Assembly: GCA_034178705.1 (NCBI GenBank)
Contig: JAXFQY010000039.1
Location: forward strand, 18,623-82,622
DNA length: 64,000 nucleotides
Direction of reading: 5' to 3'
Origin: Eubacteriales bacterium
GTDB taxonomy: Bacteria > Bacillota > Clostridia > Oscillospirales > CAG-272
Shown: positions 395-28,928 of the stretch, in pieces
Layout: every line of letters begins with the position of its first letter
Numbering within the stretch: position 1 is the first letter of the stretch
Translations under genes and position numbers: made by a program
Notes under the pieces: model-generated
Told to the model about the DNA's origin: nothing
Database searches by the model: none
Seen by the model: only the letters and a program-made list of their open reading frames with translations

Positions 395-961
395 TCAATA
401 GGTCGGCGTATCAAGCAGCCATTTTTCTCCGTCAAAACGCAGTGTCAGAACGGCATCCTCATCTTTTTCCCCGTTCGTTTCGGTTTCAATGCGGATTACC
501 ACCCGTTTGCTTCCGCTTTTTTCAATCGTCATGGTATCAAAAGAATAGGTTCTTTCCCCTGGGAGAATGGATTGGATATACCGATCCTGCATCAGCTGTC
601 CGAGGTCATCCTCGGTGAATCGCGGTAGAATGACGCCGACACTGTCTGTTATTCCGACAAACAACGTCTCAAAGATTCCCTCACAGTAGTCCGCCGTATA
701 GACAGCGCGTGCTGCCTCCTTCAGTTGATCGATCGTATCATATCTGCTTTTTTCTAAATCCACATAGCGGTAATCTGTTCCGGTAATCCCTTCCACCGTT
801 GGAAGTCCGTAGCCGAAAAAAATCTCGTTCAATTCCAGACTGTCGGTAATCAGTGCTTCGGCAATCGGCCTGATCTCTTCAAGAGTAGGTCCGCCGCAGG
901 AGGAAAACAGAATGGCCGTGCAGAGAAGAAACACACAAAAGAAAGCAAACTTAGCTTTCAT
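395..961 (-). CDS. Probable secreted lipoprotein, unknown function
   Basis: The 234-aa ORF (395..1099) is trimmed to the internal ATG at 961. This gives [25 protein letters not shown], a signal peptide ending in a lipobox-like Cys. The upstream part of the ORF overlaps the gyrA 3' end. With this start the overlap with the gyrA stop is only 11 nt. Confidence 0.6.
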
Positions 962-3509
962 TTCCGTTCTCCCCGGAATTTCCCGTATTCTCTCTGTTTT
1001 CAGTTTCCTTTGTCCCTGCTGTCGTTTCGCCGTCAGACAGAGCACTCTGCTCGGGGATTTCTTCTTGCTCCGGCTGATTTCCGTCGTGAACAACCGCAAA
1101 ATTGGAAATCACGGCATTCTCCGCTGTGCGCATGACAATAACACCGGCCGCGGAACGGCTGTACACCGGGATTTCATCCGCGTGTATACGGACAACCGTT
1201 CCGGTATCTGTAATCATCATAATGTCATCCTGCTCACCGACGGAAGCAATCCCGATCACCGGACCGGTTTTTTCGGTAATATTCTGACAGGTGACACCGT
1301 GCCCTCCACGATTTTTCATCTGGCGGAAATCGTCAAACGGTGTCCGCTTTCCGCATCCGCGCTCGGTTATGACAAGCAGACGTCGGTCGTCTGAGACAAG
1401 CGCAGCTCCGCAAACCGCATCCCCGTCTTCCAGGCGGATACCGATGACACCACGGGCGGTTCTTCCCATCGGACGGATTGTATCTCCACGGAAGCGCACG
1501 GCATTTCCCGAACGGGTCGCAATGACAAGCTCATCCTCATCCTCCATCTCTCCGGCATAGATCAGCTCGTCACCCTCATCCAACGAGAGGGCGCGCTTTC
1601 CGGTTTTTCTCTGATATTCGAATTCGCTCATCGGTGTGCGCTTGATAATGCCGTTTTTCGTAAGCATCAAAAGATATTTGTCCCCGAAACCGTTTACGGT
1701 AATCACACCGGAAAGCTTCTCCCCGTCTTCAAGCTCCAGCAGATTGCGGATGTTGGTTCCCTTTGCCGTTCTTCCTGCCTCCGGAATGAAATAAACCTTC
1801 TTGGTATATACCTTTCCTATGGAGGTAAAGAACATCATCAGCGAATGGCTGTCCGCCGTGACAACGTTCTCGATGAAGTCATCCTCCTTTGTCTGCATGC
1901 CGATAATTCCCTTTCCGCCACGGCGCTGGGCGGAATACGTATCGGCAGGCTGACGCTTGATGTATCCGGCATGCGTCATGGTTACAACACACCGATGCTT
2001 CGGAATCAGATCTTCCAGAACAATATCATCCTCGGATTCCACAATATCGGTCAGGCGCGGATCCCCGAACTTAGCCTTGATGGCCAGCAGCTCGTCCCGC
2101 ACAATGGAACGAACCTTTGTTTCGTCCCTGAGGATTTCTTCAAGCTCCGCGACAATACTCCGCAATTTTGCCAGTCTGTCCTCGATTTTCTGCCGTTCAA
2201 GTCCGGAAAGCTTTCCGAGCGTCATATCAACGATCGCCTGCGCCTGTGCCTCCGAAAGCGCAAACTCCGCCATAAGAGCTTCCCTTGCTGCCGGTATCGA
2301 CTCACTGTGCTTGATAATCTCAATGACACGGTCGATATTATCGATGGCGATTTTGTATCCCTCCAGAATATGCATCTCATGCAACGCTTTATCAAGGTCG
2401 AATTTTGTACGGCGCACAATAATTTCTTTCTGAAAGGAAATATATTGCTGAAGGATTTCCTTCAGGGAGAGAATCTTCGGTTCGCCGTTTACAATGGCAA
2501 GCATATTAACAGCAAAGGTATCCTGAAGCTGTGTATATTTATATAGCTGATTCAGTATCACCTGTCCGTTTGCATCTCTGCGGTATTCTATGACAATACG
2601 CATTCCCGCGCGTCCCGTCTCGTCACGCAGACCCGTGATTCCATCCACACGTTTTTCCTTGTGCAGATCCGCAATGCTTTTGACCAGCATTGCCTTATTG
2701 ACCGCATACGGGATTTCGGTTATGATAATACGATGCTTTTCCTCGTCAATCTGCGCGCGGGCGCGGACAGAAATATGCCCCTTTCCCGTCGCATATGCCG
2801 CATAAATGCCCGATGTTCCGTATATCGTTGCCTTTGTCGGAAAATCGGGTCCCTTGATATACTGCATGATCTCATTCAGATCCGCCTCCGGATTGTCAAG
2901 CAAACAGACAACCCCGTCGATGACCTCTCCAAGGTTGTGGGGCGGGATATTCGTCGCCATACCGACAGCGATACCGACCGAGCCGTTGACAAGCAGATTC
3001 GGAAAGCGCGAGGGAAGAACCGTCGGCTCCTTCAGCTTGTTGTCATAGTTCGGAACAAAGTCGACAACATTTTTTTCAATGTCCATCATCATATAGTCGG
3101 AGATTTTCGCAAGACGCGCCTCGGTATAACGGTAGGCAGCGGCACCGTCTCCGTCGACATTACCGAAGTTACCGTGTCCTTCCACCAGCGGATACCGGAG
3201 CGAGAAGGACTGAGCCATGCGAACCATCGATTGATAGACCGCGCTGTCCCCGTGCGGATGATACCGCCCGAGCACATTTCCGACGGTAGTTGCCGACTTG
3301 CGGAACGGCTTATCGCTTGTAAGGTGATCCTCATACATCGCGTAGAGAATGCGGCGCTGACCCGGCTTCATACCGTCCCGAACGTCAGGCAGAGCACGAC
3401 TTGTAATGACACTCATGGAGTAATCTATAAAAGACTTCTTTACCTCCGCCTCCATTGCGATGGGGACAATTTTCTGATTGGAATAGTCAAGCTCATGATT
3501 GTGTTCCAT
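951..3509 (-). CDS. gyrA: DNA gyrase subunit A
   Basis: 852-aa ORF. The N-terminus [35 protein letters not shown] and the catalytic-Tyr region [11 protein letters not shown] are typical of GyrA. It has a C-terminal beta-pinwheel region followed by an acidic tail. It lies directly downstream of gyrB. Confidence 0.97.
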
Positions 3510-3606
3510 TTATTCTTCCTTTTCCATTACCGGCAGACGAAGGATTCTTCACCTTCTTTTTGCCGCATTTCTCATCTTTCAACAAATAAAATTGGTATCT
3601 CTGATT

Positions 3607-3739
3607 TGTCGAAAAAAGTTTTCTAAAGAGGAAAACCGGCTTGGATCATCGGTTTCAACAGAGTTTTCAACAGGTTGTTGAAAACTTTTGAACAAGAGTT
3701 TTCAACAGATTGTCGAAAACTATTTTTTCTGTTGAGAAC
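3607..3739. promoter_or_regulatory. Cluster of eight TGTYGAAAAC / GTTTTCRACA 10-mers in the gyrB-gyrA spacer (candidate DnaA-box cluster or Spo0A-type operator array)
   Basis: Plus-strand copies: 3607-3616 tgtcgaaaaa, 3676-3685 tgttgaaaac, 3711-3720 tgtcgaaaac, 3730-3739 tgttgagaac. Reverse-orientation copies: 3651-3660 ggtttcaaca, 3663-3672 gttttcaaca, 3685-3694 cttttgaaca, 3698-3707 gttttcaaca. Positions 3663-3685 form a perfect 10-bp inverted repeat with a 3-bp spacer. Confidence 0.5.
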
Positions 3740-3740
3740 T

Positions 3741-5744
<2,004 letters not shown>

Positions 5745-6209: not shown

Positions 6210-7337
6210 TTAATTGATTTCAGTAAAAACACCGTTCTTGGCATGAATGATTTTACAGGAAGCAAGCCCTGCATCAGCCTCACAGGTGGTTATGATATAC
6301 TGTTTGTCTGCAACACGATCAAACAGATATTTTCTTCTTTCTGCGTCCAGTTCGCTTAAAACATCGTCAAAAAGAAAGACGGGATGCTCCCCGGTCAGCT
6401 CCCGGCAGATTTCTCCTTCCGCAAGCTTAAGGGAAAGCACCGCGGTTCTTTGTTGTCCCTGACTGCCCCACTGACGGAGAGGAACTCCGTTGATTTTCAG
6501 AATCAGATCATCGCGGTGAGGGCCGCGCTGCGTGGATCCTGCGGAAAGATCACGGTCAAGCCCCGCTTCCAGCAATCTGAGATACTCCTGCTCGCTATCC
6601 GCAAAATTGTGAGGATCCGGTACATCACAGGAATACTGAATACGCAGACGTTCGGTATTTTCGCTCATTTCCGACATAATAAACTCTGCATGCGGGGAAA
6701 GCTTTTCAATATATTCCGCCCGGCGCTGTGCAATTTTTGCCGCAAAACGGGCAAGCTGCGCATTCCATACCGGTATATTTTCCAATAATCTCTCCCTCTG
6801 AGCACCGGAAATCCCGGAAACGCCGATTTTTTTGATCAGTGCATTCCGATTTTCAAGCGCCATTGTATAGTTTCCGAGAAGATAGACATAATCGCGAGAA
6901 AGCTGAGAAATTGCGATATTCATAAATTCTCTTCTCTCGGAAGGAGAACCCTTTACAATACCGAGATGGTCCGGACAGAACAAAACAGCACGGAAATGGG
7001 AAATCATTTCAATATTCCGTTCCAGCTTAACACCGTTCAGATATCGTTTTGTTTTTTTATCCGTATGTTCAAGAAGAAGCTCTTCCTCTCTTTGTGCGTC
7101 AGTATACTCGTTCTTAACGGTAAAAAACGTATCCCCGCTTCGTATAAGCTCCCTGTCCGGAGTTCCGCGAAAACTTCTTCCCCGTGCAAAAATATAGATT
7201 GCTTCGAGAAGATTGGTCTTTCCCTGCGCATTTCTACCGAAGATAACATTGACTCCGGGCGAAAAACTGACTTCGGCATTCTCAATATTACGATAACTGC
7301 GCAGGGTCATTTTCCGGCAATACACGGCGTCAGTCAC
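6210..7337 (-). CDS. recF: DNA replication and repair protein RecF
   Basis: 375-aa ORF with Walker A GRNAQGKTNLLEAI, an SMC-like signature region SQGQQRT and Walker B LFDDVLSELD. It follows dnaN. An alternative start at 7310 (MTLRSYRNIE) would remove the 8-nt overlap with dnaN. Confidence 0.9.
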   Translation of the reverse strand: MTDAVYCRKMTLRSYRNIENAEVSFSPGVNVIFGRNAQGKTNLLEAIYIFARGRSFRGTPDRELIRSGDTFFTVKNEYTDAQREEELLLEHTDKKTKRYLNGVKLERNIEMISHFRAVLFCPDHLGIVKGSPSERREFMNIAISQLSRDYVYLLGNYTMALENRNALIKKIGVSGISGAQRERLLENIPVWNAQLARFAAKIAQRRAEYIEKLSPHAEFIMSEMSENTERLRIQYSCDVPDPHNFADSEQEYLRLLEAGLDRDLSAGSTQRGPHRDDLILKINGVPLRQWGSQGQQRTAVLSLKLAEGEICRELTGEHPVFLFDDVLSELDAERRKYLFDRVADKQYIITTCEADAGLASCKIIHAKNGVFTEIN

Positions 7338-8472
7338 TCAGTTTGACCGGCATCACAAGGAAAAACTGTTTTTTCTTTTCATCTTTCTCCGTGGGCATAA
7401 CATACATACTGGTGCGCGGTCCCTTTAGTTTCATTGTCACATTGTCGCAATCAAGGGCACGGAGAACATCAATCAGAAAACGGCAGGTAAAACCGATCTC
7501 CAGCTCCTCCCCACTGTATTCGCACGGCAGCTCATCGTTGATCTGCCCGGAAAGAGAGGTAGACGAAATTTTCAGAAGATTATCGGAAAAATGCAGACGC
7601 AGATGGCTGCGCGTGGAGCTGACACTCTTTTTTTCGGAAATCAGCGCCGCCCGCTCAAGACATTCGAGAAAGGCAACCCGATTGATTTTCACCGTAATCG
7701 GCATATCCCCCTGAATAATCCGCTCATAATCCAGGTATTTCATATCGATCAGGCGGGAGAAAAAGATCAGATCTCCAATGACAAATACAACATGCTTTTT
7801 TGCCGGCTTGATCGTCATCAGATCCTCCTCATCATCCGAGAGGATTTTCTGAAGCTCATTCAGGGACTTTCCGGGAATGATCATATTGATCTCACTGGGG
7901 AGATCGGCATTGATTTTCGTATAATACTCGCACTTGGAGAGCGTAAAGGTATTGCACGCTACCATTGTAAGAAGATTTTCCCGGATCTGAAGATATCCGC
8001 CGCACAGCTCGGGGTGGTTGCTGTCTGTCTGGGCAATCGAATGGGCGGTAGATCCCATTATCGTTTTCAGAATGCTTTGTTCGATTACAAATCCCCATTC
8101 CCCATCCAGTTCCGGGGGTGTCGGAAATTCCTTTCCGTTCAGCGCCCTCATCGTATAACAAACACGGTTGCACCGCAGATGTGCTGTCATTTTTTCATTG
8201 ACTGACAACTCAATCTCATTTTCCGGCATAACGCGCACATACTGATAAAAATCCTGGGCATTTACGATATAAGAACCCGGCTCGATGACCTGTGCGGCAA
8301 CATTTGCCCGGACTCCTTTATCCATATCGTAGGTCATAACACGGCATCGGCCGTCCTCAGATGCTTCAATTAATACCCCTTCAAGAGAGGTAAAGGTATT
8401 CTTGCTTGAAACACAACCCATTGCCGGGGTCAGCGCCGCAAGCAGCTTGACCTTATCAAAAATTATTTTCAT
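7330..8472 (-). CDS. dnaN: DNA polymerase III beta sliding clamp
   Basis: The 435-aa ORF is trimmed to the ATG at 8472 (MKIIFDKVKLLAALTP), which is preceded by an aaggag RBS. The product is 380 aa and ends in LVMPVKLSD, typical of DnaN. The discarded N-terminal extension is a translation of origin repeats (poly-Leu from CTG/CTA trinucleotides). Confidence 0.92.
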   Translation of the reverse strand: MKIIFDKVKLLAALTPAMGCVSSKNTFTSLEGVLIEASEDGRCRVMTYDMDKGVRANVAAQVIEPGSYIVNAQDFYQYVRVMPENEIELSVNEKMTAHLRCNRVCYTMRALNGKEFPTPPELDGEWGFVIEQSILKTIMGSTAHSIAQTDSNHPELCGGYLQIRENLLTMVACNTFTLSKCEYYTKINADLPSEINMIIPGKSLNELQKILSDDEEDLMTIKPAKKHVVFVIGDLIFFSRLIDMKYLDYERIIQGDMPITVKINRVAFLECLERAALISEKKSVSSTRSHLRLHFSDNLLKISSTSLSGQINDELPCEYSGEELEIGFTCRFLIDVLRALDCDNVTMKLKGPRTSMYVMPTEKDEKKKQFFLVMPVKLSD

Positions 8473-8546
8473 AAAATACTCCTTTAAGTATGATCGAATT
8501 TTTAAGAATGAACAACTTGAGACTGCTGTTTTTGGGATTGCTTTTC

Positions 8547-8574
8547 TGTAATATAGTGTAATAGATAATAAAAA
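8547..8574. other. AT-rich candidate DNA unwinding element
   Basis: tgtaatatagtgtaatagataataaaaa is 24/28 A/T. It lies immediately on the dnaN-proximal side of the trinucleotide array. Confidence 0.5.
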
Positions 8575-8592
8575 TAGCAGCAGTAGCAGTAG
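8566..8592 (-). repeat. DnaA-trio-like phased trinucleotide array
   Basis: The plus strand reads TAA TAA AAA TAG CAG CAG TAG CAG TAG, nine phased triplets with an invariant central A. It is followed by GGG (8593-8595) and two abutting CGTTGAA repeats (8597-8613). Confidence 0.55.
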
Positions 8593-8815
8593 GGGTCGTT
8601 GAAGCGTTGAAATGTATCGGGAAACCTTGAAAGACAAGCTGTGTAGGGTGTTGAAGAAAGAGTAGAAAAAAGAAAGATTTCGGATAGCTTCAACAGCGGG
8701 GAAAAATGCTTTCGCAAAAACTGTCGGGTAATACCGGTTTTCTTCAACAAAGTTTTGAACATTGACTGTTGAAAACTTTGAAAACTAAAGAAAAATAAAA
8801 TCGGTTATCGGTCAA

Positions 8816-10198
8816 TCAACCGCGGATTTCCGAGACAAGCTCCTTGATTTCATCTTCAAAAAGAGGGTCTCCCGCAATTTGCTCTTCAATCTTGGCAAGA
8901 CTGTGATGAATGGTTGCGTGGGATCTTCCGAACATATTTCCGATAGCGATCATGGAAAGATCGGTGAGGGAGCGAAGCAGATAGATGGCAACATTACGGG
9001 CATTTACGGTATTGGCAGCCTGACTTTTTCCTTTCAGCTCGGCAGCGGAAATGGAATATTTTCTGGCAACCGCTTCAATGATTTTATCGCTGACAAGATT
9101 CTGCGGCTCGCTTTCGGTAAGAAGATCGGAAATGGCGGCGCGGGCGGTTTCCAGCTGGATTCCGGTTCCGTCCAGAAAGGAAAGCGCCGCGATTTTCTTT
9201 ATGGCGCCCTCTACCTGACGAATATTGGATTTCAGGCGATCTGCCATATAGGTTACAACTTCGCTTGACAGTTCAATATGCAGATTTTTTGCCTTCTGTT
9301 TAATGATTGCCATGCGCAGTTCGATATCCGGAGGCTGAATATCCGCGATCATGCTTTGCTCAAATCGGGTACGGAGCCGCTCCTCAAGAGGATTGATATC
9401 CTTCGGGGGTTTATCGCTTGTAAAGATAATCTGCTTGTTATCCTCATAAAGAAAATTAAAAGTATGGAAGACCTCCTCCTGAACGGAAGTTTTATTCGCA
9501 ATAAACTGAATATCATCGATAATCAGAATATCAGCGCGGCGGAATTTTTCGCGGAATTCCGGTGTGCGCTTGAACTGAATCGCCTCAATAAGCTGATTTG
9601 TAAAATCCTCGCCGCTGATGTAAATCAGGGAGACATCCGGAAAACACCGCTCCACCATGTTTTTGATGGAATACATCAGATGCGTCTTTCCGAGACCGCT
9701 CGGACCGTAGATAAAAAGCGGATTGTACATGTCCCCGATATGGTCGTAATCCTTATCACCTGCATTGCTTGCCACAGCATAGCATGCCGCATAGGCAAGT
9801 TTGTTTGAGGAACCCTGTACAAAGTTCTCAAAGGTGAATTCTGCTGTTTTACTTCCCGGTATATTTCCGGGAAGGGAGCTGTTTTTCTCTTCTCGGCGAT
9901 TTTCTTCTTCCTCTCGGCGGGTAACCGTCTGCGCTGTCAGAGTCGGATCGCCGGTGAATTCAATTTTGATCCGGAAACCGAGAAGTCCTTCTATCGTTTC
10001 GGCAATTTCCTCTGCGTATTTTCCTTGTACGACTCCGCGTTTGAAATCATTCTCGATATAGAGAAGCACGCGGTTTTCATCCAGATCGAGAATCTTGCAG
10101 TCCTCAAACCAAAGACCGACAAAGGTGGAGCTGTATTTTTCACGCAGCTTTTCAACAACAAGCTGCCAGATTCCGCTCAGATCCCCGGAGGCATTCAT
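8816..10198 (-). CDS. dnaA: Chromosomal replication initiator DnaA
   Basis: 460-aa ORF with Walker A YGPSGLGKTHL, Walker B ILIIDDIQF, sensor/box VII region RLRTRFEQSMIADIQPPD and a C-terminal HTH domain. The domain IV signature is atypical (FGRSHATIHHS instead of [9 protein letters not shown].H). Confidence 0.95.
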   Translation of the reverse strand: MNASGDLSGIWQLVVEKLREKYSSTFVGLWFEDCKILDLDENRVLLYIENDFKRGVVQGKYAEEIAETIEGLLGFRIKIEFTGDPTLTAQTVTRREEEENRREEKNSSLPGNIPGSKTAEFTFENFVQGSSNKLAYAACYAVASNAGDKDYDHIGDMYNPLFIYGPSGLGKTHLMYSIKNMVERCFPDVSLIYISGEDFTNQLIEAIQFKRTPEFREKFRRADILIIDDIQFIANKTSVQEEVFHTFNFLYEDNKQIIFTSDKPPKDINPLEERLRTRFEQSMIADIQPPDIELRMAIIKQKAKNLHIELSSEVVTYMADRLKSNIRQVEGAIKKIAALSFLDGTGIQLETARAAISDLLTESEPQNLVSDKIIEAVARKYSISAAELKGKSQAANTVNARNVAIYLLRSLTDLSMIAIGNMFGRSHATIHHSLAKIEEQIAGDPLFEDEIKELVSEIRG

Positions 10199-10235
10199 GC
10201 GGGCATTCTCCTTTATATATATAATAAGTATCTAA

Positions 10236-10264
10236 ATTATATCATAGTATCGGATATATTTCAA
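10236..10264 (-). promoter_or_regulatory. Predicted sigma-A promoter of dnaA
   Basis: The minus strand reads TTGAAA (10264-10259), a 17-nt spacer, then TATAAT (10241-10236), with TG at the extended -10 position. It lies about 40 nt upstream of the dnaA ATG. Confidence 0.5.
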
Positions 10265-10347
10265 GGGATTATGGGAAAAAAGCAATTTCAGAAAAACAGG
10301 GAGAATTCTTTTCTGTCGGGGGTTTTGGAAAAACCCTGTCTGCCCCC

Positions 10348-10376
10348 TTGAATTGTTGCATCTTTCATGTTATACT
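10348..10376 (+). promoter_or_regulatory. Predicted sigma-A promoter of the sugar-kinase gene
   Basis: TTGAAT (10348-10353), a 17-nt spacer, then TATACT (10371-10376), about 50 nt upstream of the ATG at 10428. Confidence 0.4.
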
Positions 10377-10427
10377 ACCGTTGAATCAGTCTGTACATAT
10401 AAAAATTAAACAGGAAGGATTATAGAT

Positions 10428-11711
10428 ATGAACGCACTCCAATTGGCTGAATATATCCGGGCAGGAAAGGCAGACGCAAAGCTGAATGCGCTTTACGGCA
10501 AAAATCTTGACAGGCAAAGAAAAAGATATGCCGATGCAGCAGAAAAATTTGCCTCGCTTTACGGGGCTGAAAAGGATGCTTTTTTCTTCTCGGTTCCGGG
10601 GAGAAGCGAAATATCCGGAAATCATACCGACCATAACCGCGGAAAGGTTCTTGCGGGGGCCATTGATCTTGACATAATCGCTGTCGCAAGCCGCACGGAT
10701 GATGGCGCCGTACGTGTCCGCAGTGAGGGATACAGTGAGGATCGCGTGGAGCTTTCCGATATCAGTGAGCCGAAAAAGGAGAACTTTTTCAAATCCCGCG
10801 GACTGCTTGCAGGAGTACTTGCCGGTTTGCAGAAAAACGGTCATGAGGTTTGTTCCTTTTGTGCTTATACGACGAATGATGTTCACAAAGGAAGCGGGCT
10901 CTCCTCTTCTGCCGCATTTGAGGTGATGATCGGAAATATTGAAAATCATTTGGCAAACGGCGGAAAAATCGGAAATCCGGAGATTGCGAAAATTTCTCAG
11001 TTTGCGGAAAATGTATATTTCGGAAAGCCCTGCGGTTTGATGGATCAGATGGCTTGTGCCGTCGGCGGCTTTGTTGCGATTGATTTTGAAGATCCGCAGA
11101 ATCCGGTAATTGAGTCGTTGGATTTTGATCTGTCCGGTCACGGATACTCCCTTTGCATTGTCAATACCGGCGGAAATCATGCCGATCTCAACGAGGATTA
11201 TGCATCGGTTCCGGCCGAAATGAAAAAGATTGCAGCGTATTACGGGAAGGACGCATTGCGCGGATTGACAGAGGAGCAGCTGATTTCCGACATGCCGGTT
11301 CTTCGCAAAGCGGCAGGGGATCGTGCCATTCTCCGTGCTATGCATTTTGTTGCCGAAAACAAGCGTGTTGAAAAACAGACAGAAGCGCTGCGCCGCGGTG
11401 ACCTTGATACGTTTTTTGCCGGTGTGATTGAAAGCGGAAACAGCAGTTTCAAATATCTCCAGAATGTTTATACTGTGAAAAATGTAGAGGAACAGGGACT
11501 GTCCCTTGCACTTTGCGTAACCGAATATGTAACCCGTGGCTGGGGCGGTGCATTCCGTGTACACGGCGGTGGTTTTGCCGGTACGATTCAGGCATTTATT
11601 CCGACAGAAAAAGTCGAAGAATATACAAACATCATGAATTCCGTCTTCGGACAGAATGCCTGCGCCGCGCTGAAGGTTCGTCCCGAGGGAGCAATCCTTG
11701 TGAATCTGTAA
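10428..11711 (+). CDS. Galactokinase-family GHMP sugar kinase
   Basis: 427-aa ORF. PGRSEISGNHTDHNRGKVLAGAIDLD matches the galactokinase signature region, and GSGLSSSAAFEV is the GHMP ATP-binding motif. The exact sugar specificity cannot be determined from the sequence. Confidence 0.8.
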   Translation: MNALQLAEYIRAGKADAKLNALYGKNLDRQRKRYADAAEKFASLYGAEKDAFFFSVPGRSEISGNHTDHNRGKVLAGAIDLDIIAVASRTDDGAVRVRSEGYSEDRVELSDISEPKKENFFKSRGLLAGVLAGLQKNGHEVCSFCAYTTNDVHKGSGLSSSAAFEVMIGNIENHLANGGKIGNPEIAKISQFAENVYFGKPCGLMDQMACAVGGFVAIDFEDPQNPVIESLDFDLSGHGYSLCIVNTGGNHADLNEDYASVPAEMKKIAAYYGKDALRGLTEEQLISDMPVLRKAAGDRAILRAMHFVAENKRVEKQTEALRRGDLDTFFAGVIESGNSSFKYLQNVYTVKNVEEQGLSLALCVTEYVTRGWGGAFRVHGGGFAGTIQAFIPTEKVEEYTNIMNSVFGQNACAALKVRPEGAILVNL

Positions 11712-11717
11712 GCAAAC

Positions 11718-12155
11718 ATGAAGAAGAAAAGAAACAAAAACATGCCGCAGAGCACGGCAGATGCAGATGCCGTCAAAAAAGCGAAAAGAACACTCCGGTA
11801 TTTTTTTATTCTGATTATCAATGTCATTGTGTTCTATGCGGCTTACATTTTTCTGACGCGGCTCGGCGGGACTGCGGCGAACATCACCATGTGGGTCTAT
11901 CTTGTTCTTACGGTTGTTTTTTTCTCCGCGTTTATTCTCTATAACAAAGGCTTTACAATGGTAAACCGTGCACCGGATTCCTTTCCGGAGGATTGGAGTG
12001 CAGAAAAAAAATGCGCTGTCCTTGAGGAGGGAAAGCGTCGGAAAGAACGCTCAAAATGGATGCTGCTGATTATTATTCCCTTGCTTGCCGTCTGGTTTAT
12101 CGACATGGTTGATCTTTTCTTCTTGGACCGGATCCGGAATCTTTTCAACGGATAA
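11718..12155 (+). CDS. Small integral membrane protein, unknown function
   Basis: 145-aa ORF starting 7 nt after the kinase stop. It has three hydrophobic segments (FFILIINVIVFYAAYIF, MWVYLVLTVVFFSAFILY, MLLIIIPLLAVWFIDMV). Confidence 0.55.
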   Translation: MKKKRNKNMPQSTADADAVKKAKRTLRYFFILIINVIVFYAAYIFLTRLGGTAANITMWVYLVLTVVFFSAFILYNKGFTMVNRAPDSFPEDWSAEKKCAVLEEGKRRKERSKWMLLIIIPLLAVWFIDMVDLFFLDRIRNLFNG

Positions 12156-12177
12156 AATCCGATTTTTACGGAGAGCT

Positions 12178-12942
12178 ATGCTTGCCTATTCTCTTTGCTC
12201 CGGCTCGTCCGGAAACTCCTATTTCATCCGAGGAGACGCTTCCTCGATTCTGATCGATGCGGGAAGATCCGCACGCTACATTACCTCTGCGCTTTGTGAC
12301 TGCGGAAGTGGCATGGGGGAGATATCCGCTGTATTTGTCACACACAATCACAGCGATCATATCTCCGCATTGCCGGTTCTTTGCCGGCAGTATGCTTTTG
12401 ATATTTTCTGTACACCGGGCAGTGCCGATGCATTGCTCGGTGTCGGTATTCCGGAAAGCAGGATCCGTCGGATTCTTCCGGGAAACAGAATTGCTGTCGG
12501 AGACTTTTCCGTTTGCGCTTTTGAAACTCCGCATGATGCCTGCGGCAGCGTTTGCTACCGGGTTTCCGACGGATGCTGCTCTCTTGCTGTTGCGACGGAC
12601 ATCGGATATGTATCCGATTCTGTTTTTGAATGTCTTTTCGGCTGCTCCGCCGTTGCAGTGGAGTCGAATCATGACATTGACCGTCTTCGCCGCGGACCGT
12701 ATCCCGTATTTTTAAAACAGCGGATTCTTTCCGAAAGCGGACATCTTTCCAATGACCGCTGCGCCGCTCTTCTTCCCCGGCTTTATGACAGTGGAACACG
12801 GCATTTTCTTCTTGCACATCTGAGCCGCGAAAACAATGATCCGGACCTGGCTTTTGAAACGGCAAGCCGGGCTTTATCCGGCTGTGATGCAGAGCTTGCC
12901 GTTGCCTTGCCCGAAAAGCCGGTTTGTTTTTTCAGGGGGTAG
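12178..12942 (+). CDS. MBL-fold metallo-hydrolase (YycJ/WalJ-like)
   Basis: The ORF is trimmed to the ATG at 12178, preceded by a ggagag RBS. MLAYSLCSGSSGNSYFIRGDASSILIDAG and the HxHxDH motif VTHNHSDH are present. It sits next to rlmH, as yycJ does in B. subtilis. Confidence 0.85.
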   Translation: MLAYSLCSGSSGNSYFIRGDASSILIDAGRSARYITSALCDCGSGMGEISAVFVTHNHSDHISALPVLCRQYAFDIFCTPGSADALLGVGIPESRIRRILPGNRIAVGDFSVCAFETPHDACGSVCYRVSDGCCSLAVATDIGYVSDSVFECLFGCSAVAVESNHDIDRLRRGPYPVFLKQRILSESGHLSNDRCAALLPRLYDSGTRHFLLAHLSRENNDPDLAFETASRALSGCDAELAVALPEKPVCFFRG

Positions 12943-12945
12943 AAA

Positions 12946-13425
12946 TTGCAGAAACTCACTGTGATTGCCGTCGGTGGCGATAAGGAAAAATACTTTTTAG
13001 AAGCGGCGGAAGAATATAGAAAACGTCTTTCTCGTTTTGCCCAGACAGAGCTGATTCTGCTGAAGGATGAGCCGATTCCCGATCATCCTTCGGAAAAAGA
13101 GATTGCCGGCGTTCTGAAAAAAGAAGGGGACAGAATCCGTGCTGCTTTGCCGGACGGTTTTCTGAAAATTGCCCTTTGTATAGAAGGAAAACAGCTGACA
13201 AGTCCCGAACTGGCGGCTTTTCTGGACGATGCTGCCTGCCGTTTTCCCGGGATCGCCTTTATTATCGGAGGATCGCTTGGACTGGAGGAGGATGTGAAAA
13301 AGCTTTGCTCTGTCAGGCTTTCCCTTTCAAGATTGACTTTGCCGCACCGCCTGGCGCGCGTTGTTCTGATGGAGGCACTTTATCGCGCCGAGACGATCCG
13401 AAACGGCGTGAGATATCATAAATAA
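12946..13425 (+). CDS. rlmH: 23S rRNA (pseudouridine1915-N3)-methyltransferase RlmH
   Basis: 159 aa with a TTG start. It has the SPOUT-family pattern KLTVIAVGGDKEKYFLEAAEEYRKRL ... FIIGGSLGL ... LTLPHRLARVVLMEALYRA. Confidence 0.9.
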   Translation: MQKLTVIAVGGDKEKYFLEAAEEYRKRLSRFAQTELILLKDEPIPDHPSEKEIAGVLKKEGDRIRAALPDGFLKIALCIEGKQLTSPELAAFLDDAACRFPGIAFIIGGSLGLEEDVKKLCSVRLSLSRLTLPHRLARVVLMEALYRAETIRNGVRYHK

Positions 13426-13547
13426 ACGGTTGAAAAACAGGGAAAGCTGAAAAGGACATGCAGAAAGCACCTGCCTGAACTGGATTCATAAAGAATCTTT
13501 ACTTTTTTCCGGGATTCCGGAAAAAATCCGACCGAACGGAGGACCGA

Positions 13548-15779
13548 ATGCGCAAACTGAAGGAATCTGTACGCTTGCTTGCAATTGCAGGGATGTTTTT
13601 TCTGTTTTTTACTGCTGTGCTTTATCAGCGCGGGGTATTTGATTTTTCCTTTTATCCGAGAGAGCACGGCGATCCTGTAAAAACAACCGATCCTTCCGCA
13701 ACAACTCCGCTCTCTTCCGATTCCGCAGGGGGAATAGATGAACCGGATGATGAATATTCCCTGCAATTTATCGATGCACTGCGAGCAGCGACAAACATCA
13801 GCCGTATCGGGGCAGGCGTCCTGACAGGAGGAGATCCGGTTCCGTTTGCATTTGAAAAATTTACCGATCTTATTCCGGAGGGATATGAACTTTCCTATGC
13901 GGATTTTGATTCCGACGGAACCATGCGTCTGTGCCTGTTGGAGCCGGACATCTCTCTTCCGGCATACGGTTCCTATGAGATAACGGAGCTTGTTTTTTAT
14001 TCCGAGGCGAAGGATGATTACTCCGTTCCCATCGGAAAACAGCGTTTTGAACTGAAATCCGGATCCGGCGTACGCCTGTATATGGGGTATATTCTGACGG
14101 ATGACGGCAACGAACAGCGTGTGTACACCTGGAACGGAAAACTGCTTCTCAAGGAACCGTCCGGCTATCTTTATCCTGCCTTAACGCGCGATACGGAAGG
14201 CCATCCTCTTTTCACGCTCGGAGACAGCAAATATTACCGTTTTGATGAAGCCGGAAAGCTGATCGAAAGCGATTACAACGATGAAACAGACGGGCGGGGT
14301 CTGTATTTTGACTATACCCCGGATTATGGTGCAGGCGACAACGATATTCTGCGTTTTTCCGTTCGTACCATCATCACCAGTCTTGTCACGGCTCCGCCGG
14401 AGGAAACGGAAGCACCCCCGGAAACTCTCCCCCCGGAGACTGATTCTCCCGTAACCGTTTACACACAGGAACCGGTAACGGAGCCTCCTGCAGAAACCGA
14501 CGTGCCGGCGGAAACGACTGATGTCGCAGCAGTTCCGGATTCCTCCGAGAGCACGGAAGATTCCGATGCCGGAGAGACCGAAGAGACCTCTGAAGACACC
14601 GGAAATACAGAAAGCGCAGAGATAACCGACTCGGCGGAAACAATAGCACCGGAGGAAAATGAGCCTTCTCCACCCCCGGAAGAAACAACGGCTGAAGGCT
14701 CCGAAGACACCGAAACAGGGAATTCTTCGGCAGAAGAGGGAGAGCTTTCTTCTGACAGTCCGATTCCGGAGGAAATCACCGAAGGGTCGGTTTCTGAAGC
14801 AGGGCAAACGACGGAAGGCGGAGGGGCTGAGCTTCTCGCAGCTGCGGCCGATCTGCCCGACGATACTGACGATGCTCCGGCCGAAACAGGATCGGATCCG
14901 TCCGAAACCACCGGACTTCCCGAAGAGAGCACCCAAAGCAGTAGTATATTTACAGAAAACCCGGAAAATCCCGAGACTTCAGAATCAACCGAAGGAATCC
15001 CGGCAACCGAGACCGAAACAGAACCGGAGCCGCCCGTGACAACCGCTCCGCCGCGCATTGTGGATATCATCAGCACGGAAGAACTTCGCTTTGCATACGG
15101 ATATTCTTCCTGGTATCTGCTGACCGGATATAAATATTCGAGGATGTTCAATTTTTCCGAAGGATACGGGGTCTCTGTCTGGTATGACAAGGTTCTCTCG
15201 GTTGTCAATGAATACGGACAGGAAGACTGGCGCTTCACAAGACAGCTTTATTACTGGAACGAAAACGGAAGGCTTGCCTACTCCATTTATACCGAACCTC
15301 TGACGCGCGGGATTGCTTCTTTGGGAAGCTATTATTTTGATCGTGGGTACCTCCGTGTACGTCAGTTGGATACCGATGCCTATTACGGAAATCCGGATTA
15401 TCTGATCGGACAGTATGATTTTCTGCTTGACAAAGAAGGAAACAAATTTGCCATTCCGGAGGGCTATGATCTTGTCGGTTACTCGGACGGAGTTCTGTTG
15501 CTTTCCCGTGGCGGAAAGTACGGCTATTACAGTACGGAAATCGGCTGGATTGCACAGCCTATTTATACCTTCGCCCGTCCTTTTGCCGAAGGGTTGGGTG
15601 TAATCGGCTTTCAGAACGGAATCAAGGGGATTATCGACACAAAAGGAAATGTGGTTCTTCCCTTTGTTTATACCGACATTTCCCAGATTTCCTCCGGCGT
15701 GATTGCTGCATACTCTGCCGAAACCGGCTGGGAGTTTTACGGCAAGGTTTGCAGACCGGAGACCCTTTCCGAAGGTTGA
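13548..15779 (+). CDS. Membrane-anchored WG-repeat (KWG) surface protein with an acidic Pro/Thr/Glu-rich linker
   Basis: 743 aa. N-terminal TM segment LLAIAGMFFLFFTAVLY. A low-complexity ETEAPPETLPPETDSP... linker of about 200 aa. C-terminal repeats of the type GGKYGYYSTEIGWIAQPIYTFARPFAEGLGVIGFQNGIKGIIDTKGNVVLPFVYTDI. Confidence 0.8.
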   Translation: MRKLKESVRLLAIAGMFFLFFTAVLYQRGVFDFSFYPREHGDPVKTTDPSATTPLSSDSAGGIDEPDDEYSLQFIDALRAATNISRIGAGVLTGGDPVPFAFEKFTDLIPEGYELSYADFDSDGTMRLCLLEPDISLPAYGSYEITELVFYSEAKDDYSVPIGKQRFELKSGSGVRLYMGYILTDDGNEQRVYTWNGKLLLKEPSGYLYPALTRDTEGHPLFTLGDSKYYRFDEAGKLIESDYNDETDGRGLYFDYTPDYGAGDNDILRFSVRTIITSLVTAPPEETEAPPETLPPETDSPVTVYTQEPVTEPPAETDVPAETTDVAAVPDSSESTEDSDAGETEETSEDTGNTESAEITDSAETIAPEENEPSPPPEETTAEGSEDTETGNSSAEEGELSSDSPIPEEITEGSVSEAGQTTEGGGAELLAAAADLPDDTDDAPAETGSDPSETTGLPEESTQSSSIFTENPENPETSESTEGIPATETETEPEPPVTTAPPRIVDIISTEELRFAYGYSSWYLLTGYKYSRMFNFSEGYGVSVWYDKVLSVVNEYGQEDWRFTRQLYYWNENGRLAYSIYTEPLTRGIASLGSYYFDRGYLRVRQLDTDAYYGNPDYLIGQYDFLLDKEGNKFAIPEGYDLVGYSDGVLLLSRGGKYGYYSTEIGWIAQPIYTFARPFAEGLGVIGFQNGIKGIIDTKGNVVLPFVYTDISQISSGVIAAYSAETGWEFYGKVCRPETLSEG

Positions 15780-26734: not shown

Positions 26735-26873
26735 GGGGAATTTCGCAGTTTTCCTTAAAAAGGATTTTTCAAAAAACATAGAAAAAGATCAGAATCGCCG
26801 CATACCATCCTTTGGGCCTGAAACGGAGAGCCTGACAATGGTTTTTCAGAAGCTGTTTGGAATCCGCTGCGCA

Positions 26874-26904
26874 GAAAACGGCGGTCGAGCCGACCGCCGT
26901 TTTC
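26874..26904 (-). terminator. Strong hairpin terminator after the surface-protein gene
   Basis: gaaaacggcggtcg (26874-26887), loop agc, then cgaccgccgttttc (26891-26904). This is a 14-bp perfect stem with T/A runs on both sides, so it may act bidirectionally. It lies about 55 nt downstream of the stop at 26961. Confidence 0.7.
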
Positions 26905-26960
26905 TCTTTTATCCAAAGATAAATCTAACTAAGATATGTTTTTTCAGAAGTGGGACAGAA

Positions 26961-28271
26961 TCAGTTCTCGCGCTTCTTTACAAAGACCATAGCCGCCGCC
27001 GCAACAAGCGCCGCACCGCTGATCACGAAGAGAACGGGAGAGATGTCACCGGTAGGAGGAGTAACCTCGCCGGCGGTGGTAGCCGGAACCGGTTCGGTTG
27101 CCGGAGCCGCTGTGGTTTCCTGCGCCGGAGCAGCTGTGGTTTCCTGCGCCGGAGCGTCGGTGGTAACAACAGGAGGGTCGGTCACGACCGGCGTGCTGCC
27201 GCCGTCAAGGGTTCCGCTGCCGAAGGTACCGGTGTAGGTATATTCCTTCATTGCAGTAAAGCCGAGGGTTTTGATCTTTCCGGAGGCGTCAACCGCGGCC
27301 TTGATGGACGGGTCGATCAGCAGCTCGGAATTGGCAAACAGGGTTGCTTCCTCGTATCCGCTGAAAACGGAGGCGCCGGAGATACCGTAGAAAATGATGT
27401 TTCCGGCGGTATCGGTAAAGGTATGATCCGCTGCCTGCTGTGCATTGTTGAAGGAGTCTTCAATCTTGAAGTTTTTGGTCAGGACGATCTGAACATCGCC
27501 CTTAAAGCCGGTTGCCTTGGAGTCGTGAGCCGTTGCCCAGCAGTCAATCACGCCGCCGTCCAGAACGAGAAGCCCGGAGCCGTAATTAACGGCAGCACTG
27601 CTGCGTCCGCCGAGGGCAAGCTTGAAGGTCTTGGCGTCTCCGCCGAACTCAACAACGCACTTGCCGGTGTAATCGGCAGGAGCGCCGCTGCGGGGACCGC
27701 CGATGATTTCAAGGAAAGAACCGCTGAGTATGGTGAGGTGGGTGTCCTGCGCGGTGTCAAGCGTGGATGCGGAGCCCTGATCGCCTCCGTTAACGTAAAG
27801 GCGGGGCCATTCTCTGCCGTCATCCTCTGCGACAGTAACACCGTAGCCGAAGGTAAGGTGATGGAACATGCCGTGAACAACCCAGGTGCTTGCCAGCTGG
27901 AGGTGCAGGTTTTTGAAGACTGTCGGACCGCCGCAGTAAAAATGGTCGGTTACAACGACATAAATTCCGCCGTTGTAGTCCACGTTGTTGTACTTACCGG
28001 TAATGGTAATCGTTCCGGTATGCTCGGGCGCATAGAAAGCCGAAAGAAAGTTGATTTCTCCGACCAGCACGATCGTGCCGCCTTCATCGCCGAGAGCATT
28101 GTACGCATCTTCAAGCGAGGGCAGTGCTTTTTCCGGAGAACTTCCGTCTCCGACTGCATCTTCCTTGACATAGACAACTTTTTCCTCCGCTGCACTGGCG
28201 GGAAGAACAAAAGCAGGGACAAGGGAGAGCATAAGTAAACATGCGAGAGCTATTGCGCAAAGCTTCTTCAT
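26961..28271 (-). CDS. Secreted cell-surface protein with a C-terminal sorting-signal-like anchor
   Basis: The ORF is trimmed to the ATG at 28271, giving the signal peptide MKKLCAIALACLLMLSLVPAFVLPASA. It contains a Thr/Ala/Pro linker with tandem TTAAPAQE repeats. The C-terminus is TPPTGDISPVLFVISGAALVAAAAMVFVKKREN: a PxTG-type motif, a hydrophobic helix and a basic tail. Confidence 0.7.
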   Translation of the reverse strand: MKKLCAIALACLLMLSLVPAFVLPASAAEEKVVYVKEDAVGDGSSPEKALPSLEDAYNALGDEGGTIVLVGEINFLSAFYAPEHTGTITITGKYNNVDYNGGIYVVVTDHFYCGGPTVFKNLHLQLASTWVVHGMFHHLTFGYGVTVAEDDGREWPRLYVNGGDQGSASTLDTAQDTHLTILSGSFLEIIGGPRSGAPADYTGKCVVEFGGDAKTFKLALGGRSSAAVNYGSGLLVLDGGVIDCWATAHDSKATGFKGDVQIVLTKNFKIEDSFNNAQQAADHTFTDTAGNIIFYGISGASVFSGYEEATLFANSELLIDPSIKAAVDASGKIKTLGFTAMKEYTYTGTFGSGTLDGGSTPVVTDPPVVTTDAPAQETTAAPAQETTAAPATEPVPATTAGEVTPPTGDISPVLFVISGAALVAAAAMVFVKKREN

Positions 28272-28445
28272 AAGAATTTCCTTTCTATTTTCGCAGAGGC
28301 CACAGCCTCGGAGGATAATCATATAATAGCACAGAACCTCTTCGGATTCAAGATTAATTTGTAGGATGATTTTACAAAAAATATTGACTCACGTATAAAA
28401 TTGGCGAAAATCACAAAAAACGGGATAATTTATCCCTGCTTGCAA

Positions 28446-28862
28446 TCAGTCCTCTTTTTCTTGATCCTCCGCAGGCTTTTTCTTCTCTTTTTCCGCCGCT
28501 TTCACAAAAGCATCCTTCCGCTCACGAAGACGGTTGATGCCTTTGACCAGGCAGAAAACAACAAACGCGGTGATCAGAAAATCCAGCGCGGTCTGAAGAA
28601 ACTGTCCGTACTTGATCGCGACGGTCTCAACCGCTTCGGTTGCCGGGTCATCCGGTTTCAAGGTAATAGCAAGGTCGGCAAACTCTTTGCCGTTGATGAA
28701 AAATCCGACGATCGGATTGACGATGTCATTCACGAGGGAGGTCACGATTTTCTGGAACGCGCCGCCGACAATAATACCGACTGCCATGTCCATCACGTTT
28801 CCCCGCGCAATGAACTCTTTGAATTCGCCGAAAAACCCTTTTTTCTTTGCTTGTTCTGCCAT
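28446..28862 (-). CDS. mscL: Large-conductance mechanosensitive channel MscL
   Basis: 138 aa. FKEFIARGNVMDMAVGIIVGGAFQKIVTSLVNDIVNPIVG is the canonical MscL TM1 region. Confidence 0.92.
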   Translation of the reverse strand: MAEQAKKKGFFGEFKEFIARGNVMDMAVGIIVGGAFQKIVTSLVNDIVNPIVGFFINGKEFADLAITLKPDDPATEAVETVAIKYGQFLQTALDFLITAFVVFCLVKGINRLRERKDAFVKAAEKEKKKPAEDQEKED

Positions 28863-28928
28863 GATAACTGTCTCCTTTATAAATATAAAATATTTGGATT
28901 CGGGTTGTGAACGGAAGGAAAAACCGGA

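Follow-up and report, generated by a model that had tools for sequence, protein, structure and literature searches.

The reference for bacterial origin opening in the Firmicutes is the basal unwinding system (BUS) of Bacillus subtilis, located in the incC region of oriC and composed of DnaA-box#6 and DnaA-box#7, a GC cluster, DnaA-trios and an AT-rich region (Richardson 2016, 2019; Pelliciari 2021, 2023). A cryo-EM study of the B. subtilis BUS complex revealed that six trios engage seven DnaA protomers and that DnaA captures two bases per trio, 3'-GA-5'; Arg202 and Glu228 read the G and Asn187 the A, and Ile190 and Ile193 only flank the third base (PMC10721633). The pattern TnnT is recognized by DnaD (PMC10201434). 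According to the BUS rules of Pelliciari 2021, a DnaA box lies at most 16 bp from the first trio and carries at most two mismatches to the motif of the species or, otherwise, to TTATCCACA, and the published length of the box-to-trio spacer peaks at 10-13 bp (PMC8287927). Within the Clostridia, unwinding has been mapped with P1 at oriC2 of C. difficile, where a trio array (CTACTACTATTACTACTA) follows the GC cluster and the boxes and lies upstream of a DNA unwinding element (DUE) between dnaA and dnaN; in this species, domain IV of DnaA has the canonical residues and the boxes are TTWTNCACA, and melting in vitro depends on the oriC1 cluster ahead of dnaA (PMC7561715). DnaA boxes that depart from the Escherichia coli consensus within a conserved architecture are known from Helicobacter (TCATTCACN, with T at position 5), cyanobacteria (TTTTCCACA) and Thermotoga (a 12-mer). 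The definitions of trios and of the BUS used below were taken from PMC8287927, PMC10721633 and PMC10201434.

The DNA analyzed here, designated as the window, is a stretch of 64,000 nucleotides on a 99-kb contig of a 2.14-Mb draft assembly consisting of 120 contigs. The closest named records are metagenome-assembled genomes (MAGs) from the gut of cattle, goat and sheep, labelled Clostridia, Eubacteriales or Oscillospiraceae, and a Bacillus-type origin was therefore the prior expectation. On the minus strand, the gene order is gyrA (951-3509), gyrB (3741-5681), a small remB-like ORF, recF (6210-7337), dnaN and dnaA. The spacer of 343 bp between dnaA and dnaN (8473-8815) is very probably the half of the chromosomal origin at which unwinding takes place in an uncultured Oscillospirales-like member of the Clostridia, organized as a Bacillus-type BUS. 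The module would be a standard Firmicute BUS, with DnaA binding, unwinding and helicase loading ascribed to it by analogy with the described systems. Its features are summarized in the following table.

Table. Features of the dnaA-dnaN region, listed in the dnaA-to-dnaN direction (positions in the window).
Feature	Position	Strand	Remarks
dnaA	8816..10198	-	460 aa; Pfam Bac_DnaA, Bac_DnaA_C, DnaA_N
Distal DnaA-box-like site	8776-8784	-	weak; 10-mer 8776-8785 = GTTTTCAAAG; read in sequence
Distal DnaA-box-like site TTTTCAACA	8767-8775	-	10-mer 8767-8776 = GTTTTCAACA
Distal DnaA-box-like site TTTTGAACA	8753-8761	+	10-mer 8752-8761 = GTTTTGAACA
Distal DnaA-box-like site TCTTCAACA	8741-8749	+	10-mer 8740-8749 = TTCTTCAACA
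Distal DnaA-box-like site GCTTCAACA	8687-8695	+	
Distal DnaA-box-like site TCTTCAACA	8649-8657	-	
Distal DnaA-box-like site CTTTCAAGG	8627-8635	-	weak
AAGGTTT element	8622..8628	-	about 9-15 nt ahead of the two proximal boxes; conserved columns in a nine-genome alignment
Upstream proximal DnaA box ATTTCAACG (putative)	8605..8613	-	equivalent of B. subtilis box 6; points at the trios
Downstream proximal DnaA box GCTTCAACG (putative)	8597..8605	-	equivalent of box 7; same orientation as ATTTCAACG
GC cluster ACCC	8593..8596	-	between boxes and trios; GGG on the plus strand at 8593-8595
DnaA-trio array	8566..8592	+	TAA TAA AAA TAG CAG CAG TAG CAG TAG
AT-rich DNA unwinding element (predicted)	8547..8577	.	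overlaps the distal trios
dnaN ribosome-binding site AAAGGAG	8479..8485	-	6 nt ahead of the ATG (8472-8470)
dnaN	7330..8472	-	380 aa; three Pfam DNA_pol3_beta domains

In the dnaA-to-dnaN direction, the proximal part of the spacer reads ...AAGGTTTCCCGATAC ATTTCAACG CTTCAACG ACCC CTA CTG CTA CTG CTG CTA TTT TTA TTA TCTATTACACTATATTACAG.... The two proximal boxes overlap by one base and thus follow each other at a period of 8 bp, which appears on the plus strand as CGTTGAA at 8597-8603 with a second copy at 8605-8611. A spacer of 12 bp separates the upstream box from the first trio. Counted from the box side, the trios are 3'-GAT GAC GAT GAC GAC GAT AAA AAT AAT-5', i.e., nine phased NAN triplets, the first of which is GAT; six of them (three GAT and three GAC) contain 3'-GA-5', and the last three are AAA, AAT and AAT. 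The minus strand over the trios (CTA CTG ...) has T at every third base, a TnnT pattern of the type recognized by DnaD. Beyond the trios, 24 of the 28 positions of 8547-8574, 75 bp from the dnaN ATG, are A or T. Among the 30-mers of the spacer, the one with the lowest duplex stability begins at 8547-8548 and has a dG of -27.8 kcal/mol, the mean of the window being -41.9 (sd 3.6); just 14 of the 63,971 30-mers of the window are less stable (0.02 percentile). The word ATTACACTATAT is found at 8551-8562 in the AT-rich tract and at the same place in three relatives of the genus (L002, L003 and L005), in which the surrounding spacer is unalignable. In a letter-by-letter reading, every coordinate that the initial annotation had given for the triplets, the GGG, the CGTTGAA repeats, the AT-rich stretch and the six 9-10-mers proved correct. 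As for the sequence features by which a BUS is recognized, the locus presents an origin location, a box near the first trio, a tandem co-oriented second box, a GC cluster within the spacer, at least three phased trios on the correct strand, an AT-rich distal region and intact DnaA residues.

For comparison with canonical origins, the dnaA loci of named Firmicutes were retrieved using B. subtilis DnaA (the Peribacillus DnaA is 85% identical). The module of the window, ATTTCAACG and CTTCAACG followed by ACCC and CTA CTG CTA CTG CTG CTA, corresponds part by part to that of Peribacillus (TTATCCACA, TATCCACA, AGAC, CTA CTA CTA TTA CTA CTA) and that of Clostridium brassicae (TTATCCACA, TATTCACA, CGCC, CTA CTA CTA TTA CTA CTA). 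The 8-bp period with one shared base, the 4-nt GC cluster, the 12-bp spacer and the strand polarity are the same in the window and in the canonical Firmicutes; the 8-bp period also occurs in Peribacillus, Clostridium, Brevibacillus and other canonical origins, and the GC-cluster 4-mers of the canonical panel are AGAC, GCCC, AGCC and CGCC. Of 54 origins outside the genus, 34 have a box-to-trio spacer of 12 bp and 18 have one of 13 bp. Like incC of B. subtilis, the module lies between dnaA and dnaN and possesses two co-oriented boxes aimed at the trios, a GC cluster of 4 nt, a box-to-trio spacer of 12 bp, an AT-rich DUE after the trios and six 3'-GA-5' trios, the number engaged in the cryo-EM complex. 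It also resembles oriC2 of C. difficile, another Clostridia origin with 5-9 boxes in this half, in the succession of boxes, GC cluster, trio array and DUE within the dnaA-dnaN spacer. The succession that the initial annotation had likened to the B. subtilis arrangement, from boxes via GC cluster and 3'-GAT-5'-type trios to the AT-rich DUE, is that of the canonical Firmicutes, is kept in relatives and is situated at the skew switch described below. In contrast to B. subtilis, three of the trios are 3'-GAC-5', no incA/B-type cluster is present upstream of dnaA, rpmH-rnpA is not adjacent, and a large box array lies 5 kb off, between gyrB and gyrA. A divergent galactokinase gene (galK) is located 229 bp upstream of dnaA, where rpmH would sit. 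The bipartite Firmicute oriC has a second box cluster directly upstream of dnaA, usually near rpmH; as such a cluster is absent here, unlike in C. difficile with its oriC1, this origin is not classically bipartite.

The trio-reading residues of the initiator are conserved. Alignment of the window DnaA with B. subtilis DnaA (8btg) showed that N201, I204, I207, R216 and E242 correspond to N187, I190, I193, R202 and E228 of B. subtilis, all five being identical; the equivalent of the arginine finger R264 is identical as well, and the AAA+ domain is intact. The initial annotation had counted the CAG trios (3'-GAC-5') among the unusual parts of the module. This is a mild variant, because only the third base, which is not captured, differs and 3'-GA-5' is kept. 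A set of 74 non-redundant BUS-like arrays ranks CTG third among the trio types (42 of 444), behind CTA (253) and TTA (66), although the score used to find the arrays gave partial credit to G at the third position and may slightly favour CTG-bearing arrays. None, one, two or three CTG trios were found in 44, 21, 6 and 3 of these arrays, respectively, so the three of six in the window belong to the upper tail and are not unique.

The module is conserved in a lineage whose sequences have otherwise diverged considerably. Among the genus relatives, DnaA is just 57-67% identical, and the spacers can for the most part not be aligned. The module is nevertheless present in each of the nine genus genomes, 77-120 bp before dnaN: a box TTTT[C/G][A/T]ACA, a degenerate second box at the 8-bp period, a GC cluster of 4-5 nt, CTA CT[A/G] followed by further trios, and an AT-rich tract. 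The phase of the first two trios, CTA CT[AG], is invariant in the nine genomes, and the boxes and the GC cluster hold their phase there as well. The conservation of the triplet phase and of the repeats in close relatives, which the initial annotation had named as a check, was therefore observed for the first two trios and the box pair. The site of the upstream proximal box is occupied in relatives by TTTTGAACA, TTTTCAACA or TTTTCTACA, and the same module is found in most relatives at the levels of family and order. The AAGGTTT-like element, placed some 8-15 nt ahead of the box pair, is likewise conserved in the genus. In 54 origins outside the genus, from Firmicutes and beyond, GG followed by TTT is enriched at positions -12 to -8 before the upstream box; no description of an AAGGTTT-like element was found in the BUS literature examined.

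As far as the sequence can be read, the truly divergent box sequence is the only unusual part of the module, and here the initial annotation was right in regarding the parts as uncommon. No TTWTNCACA site is present in the dnaA-dnaN spacer, and the six such sites of the window are at chance level. The boxes of this lineage are approximately G-TTTT-[C/G/A]-[A/G]-ACA versus the canonical TTATCCACA, with the consensus C at position 6 replaced by A or G. An unbiased count of 7-mers in eight genus spacers placed TTGAACA at the top (in eight of eight genomes, 39-fold), with TTCAACA at 28-fold and TTCGACA at 29-fold; these distal words are the most shared and enriched words of the genus spacers. The box matrix of the eight genomes is G-TTTT-[C22 G12 A10 T5]-[A27 G11 T8 C3]-ACA. 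The boxes of the window are TTTCAACG where B. subtilis has TTATCCACA, position 6 being A and position 9 being G; the final G is shared by both proximal boxes of this genome, and 45 of the 49 genus sites have A there. The proximal boxes are the weakest matches of this genome to the genus consensus (two and three mismatches). Relative to the lineage motif TTTTCAACA, for which the eight genus genomes were the source, the box ATTTCAACG has two mismatches; relative to the E. coli TTATCCACA, it has four and the second box five. The box ATTTCAACG thus falls outside the default TTATCCACA rule and inside the BUS rules only with the lineage-specific motif that they allow; because of the four and five mismatches, a BUS finder run with the default motif would miss both proximal boxes. 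The change differs from those of the Helicobacter, cyanobacterial and Thermotoga boxes in that it concerns position 6 (C to A or G).

The divergent boxes are accompanied by substitutions in DnaA domain IV. The residues in contact with bases were taken from PMC7561715 and PMC5043019, and, in E. coli numbering, four of these positions are changed in the gene segment 8900-9030, namely R399 to Q, P423 to I, D433 to S and T435 to A, a further difference from B. subtilis. R399 and D433 are absent throughout the genus, and most relatives in the family keep both; P423 and T435 are lost in part, and the combination of S433 and A435 occurs in this genome only, among the loci examined. In spacers of the subclade of the window, position 6 is C at no site and A at 22, compared with C at 341 and A at 179 in D433-keeping loci. 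Outside the genus, too, position 6 is A in some origins, namely in 11 of the 54 upstream boxes; in Alkaliphilus hydrothermalis (L119), the proximal pair is TTACTAACA and AACTAACA, with TA at positions 5-6, and domain IV is canonical (R, P, D, H, T, H). As A at position 6 thus occurs outside the genus, including in Alkaliphilus with its canonical domain IV, the link between domain IV residues and box bases is a correlation and not a proven code. In the literature searched, no description was found of A or G replacing C at position 6 in combination with the absence of D433 and R399 and, partly, of T435.

Regarding the position of the origin, the initial annotation had proposed cumulative GC skew as a check, and at contig level, which is the scale that the draft assembly offers, the result agrees with it. 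The cumulative GC-skew minimum of the 99-kb contig falls at window position 8482, and the mean skew is -0.042 on its left side and +0.035 on its right side. It is the only deep origin-type V among the 39 contigs of at least 20 kb (depth 598 versus 181 for the next). Since minus-strand genes are numerous to the right of this position, a replication-arm term was separated from a gene-orientation term with the use of 38 other contigs. In a binomial model of third-codon (GC3) skew, change points at 12.9 kb, 37.6 kb and 8.7 kb lie within one log-likelihood unit of each other, and the gyrA-gyrB boundary, worse by 30.8 units, is excluded; because a few outlier genes drive the spread of this model, it was replaced by a model of skew at all positions with empirical gene-to-gene variance. 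Two plus-strand genes at 26838-28910 are such outliers with extreme GC3 skew (-0.42 and -0.44) that distort the change-point analysis. The all-position, orientation-corrected model assigned a change-point posterior of 0.87 to 7.3-10.3 kb, with 0.43 for the dnaN-dnaA boundary, 0.30 for dnaA-galK and 0.14 for recF-dnaN. As the assembly is a draft of 120 contigs, the test is local and has a resolution of about +/-1.5 kb. Besides the weak match of the proximal boxes, the denser box array between gyrB and gyrA and the missing cluster upstream of dnaA, a point against the origin reading is a block of about 30 kb on the right, whose genes, rpoB and rpoC among them, would be oriented head-on to the fork; a head-on orientation is unusual for highly expressed Firmicute genes. 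The region 18942-47534 consists mostly of minus-strand genes, including rpoC and rpoB, with a third-codon skew of the right-arm type. On the left of the origin, four minus-strand genes (contig C105, about 9535-14325, i.e., window -9088 to -4298) display a right-arm-type GC3 skew of +0.07 to +0.25, which may reflect a local inversion or acquired DNA.

One alternative is that replication starts nearby instead, at the box array between gyrB and gyrA or upstream of dnaA, in which case the dnaA-dnaN spacer would be a DnaA-regulated dnaN promoter or a titration cluster; this explanation is considered improbable. Box-like sites as such are not confined to the dnaA-dnaN spacer. Scans with TTCAACR and TTTTSRACA yielded seven distal 9-mers in both orientations spread over 8627..8785, and TTTTSRACA occurs 13 times in the window compared with 3.8 +/- 1.9 expected (none of 100 shuffles reached 13), with 8 of the 13 matches falling in two spacers. 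The gyrB-gyrA spacer (3578-3719), 5 kb from the dnaA-dnaN spacer, contains the densest TTTTCAACA-like cluster of the assembly, with nine sites of at most one mismatch in 300 bp, in both orientations and including six exact TTTTSRACA, versus four sites in the dnaA-dnaN spacer. A start upstream of dnaA would coincide with the switch of gene strand at 10199-10427, and the posterior of the dnaA-galK boundary given above also speaks in its favour. This 229-bp region, however, holds one TTCAACG and no box cluster, box pair, trios or comparable array, and the gyrA-gyrB boundary is worse by 7.7 log-likelihood units in the all-position model. Nine phased triplets with a central A are by themselves not rare, being found at 220 places in the genome, whereas six consecutive CT[AG] triplets occur a single time in 2.14 Mb on both strands, in the dnaA-dnaN spacer; the only other CTR run of at least four triplets in the whole assembly is (CTG)4 on contig C46, and the scan detected no trio array in the gyrB-gyrA spacer. 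The gyrB-gyrA array was accordingly rejected as an unwinding site, and it may serve as an auxiliary or titrating DnaA-box cluster. The box pair, GC cluster, trios and DUE co-occur in the dnaA-dnaN spacer alone, and the set is conserved. Exact copies of TTTTCAACA are also located at 10149-10157, within the initial 50 nt of the dnaA reading frame, and at 11366-11374 in the galactokinase gene.

Other explanations concern the identity of the elements within the spacer. In principle, Spo0A (0A box TGTCGAA) or some other regulator could bind the TTCAACA/TTCGACA repeats in place of DnaA, with the triplets being a slippage microsatellite, a combination that appears even less probable than a start elsewhere. 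Read on the opposite strand, the genus box is TGTYGAAAA and similar to the 0A box, the relatives have TTCGACA among their enriched 7-mers, Spo0A is encoded in this genome and in 12 of the 12 relatives searched, and Spo0A boxes overlap DnaA boxes in oriC of B. subtilis (PMC5295017). Nevertheless, an exact TGTCGAA was not found in the spacer, and in most relatives the box next to the trios is TTTTGAACA, in which the CG core of a 0A box is broken. Position 5 of the box is degenerate (see the matrix above), as it is in the DnaA boxes TTWTNCACA; the boxes are placed relative to the trios exactly as canonical DnaA boxes are, and the domain IV changes of DnaA occur in the same clade. Unlike a microsatellite, the triplets keep their phase and the first two trios across diverged genomes. 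Hardly any weight can be given to the proposal that the spacer is coding, as a dnaN extension from TTG 8637 or an 86-aa ORF at 8502-8762, or that it encodes a structured RNA. Both ORFs are open in this genome, but their translations are of low complexity (e.g., LLLLLLFLL and CYCCYFYY), in relatives the frame is interrupted by stops that lie 3-28 codons ahead of the dnaN ATG, and DnaN homology in relatives begins at residue 1 (tblastn), at the ATG 8472, where AAGGAG and the ATG are aligned and conserved across nine genus genomes; no Rfam match was obtained at E <= 1. A sigma-70 promoter or a terminator as the main feature of the spacer was rejected, with only two weak promoter-like matches and one weak terminator-like match.

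Taking the spacer as a BUS, the course of initiation can be proposed by analogy with B. subtilis. ATP-DnaA would dock through domain IV on the co-oriented proximal boxes (8613-8597), assisted by the boxes further upstream, probably by looping. The AAA+ domains would then polymerise along the plus strand across the trios (8592-8566), each protomer pair capturing the 3'-GA-5' of one trio, so that the strand would be stretched and the adjacent AT-rich tract (8547-8577) would open. The complementary strand with T at every third base would offer DnaD-type TnnT motifs for loading of the second helicase. Genes of the DnaD/DnaB family and a DnaI-like gene are encoded, as in B. subtilis: a DnaD/DnaB-family gene adjoins a DnaI-like AAA+ gene on contig C79, and this pair is probably a dnaB/dnaD-dnaI helicase-loader operon. 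The former gene was seen at C79:3642-5057, with two DnaB_2 (DnaD/DnaB-family) domains, next to an AAA+ ORF that is DnaA-like.

The genus retains the 3'-GA-5' capture dinucleotide, the 8-bp box period and the spacer of 12-13 bp, together with the five identical contact residues noted for the window DnaA. A tentative reading, which we judge to fall slightly short of an even balance, is that the genus rewrote the double-strand code of its initiator and that the single-strand code and the geometry of the module stayed frozen. If true, this lineage would represent a natural separation-of-function experiment on DnaA, and the pairing of the box change with the domain IV substitutions would provide a route to how DnaA reads position 6. 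In a bolder extension of this reading, the new box, TGTYGAAAA on the other strand, would have drifted onto the 0A box of Spo0A, and Spo0A~P could compete with DnaA at most of the origin boxes. The constraint suggested by the locus is that geometry and the captured 3'-GA-5' are fixed and that the box sequence and the third base of the trios drift. The proximal boxes also reveal a blind spot of BUS finders that rely on the default E. coli box motif. Placement of the origin in uncultured rumen and gut Clostridia would be useful for genome annotation and for growth-rate (peak-to-trough) estimates from metagenomes.
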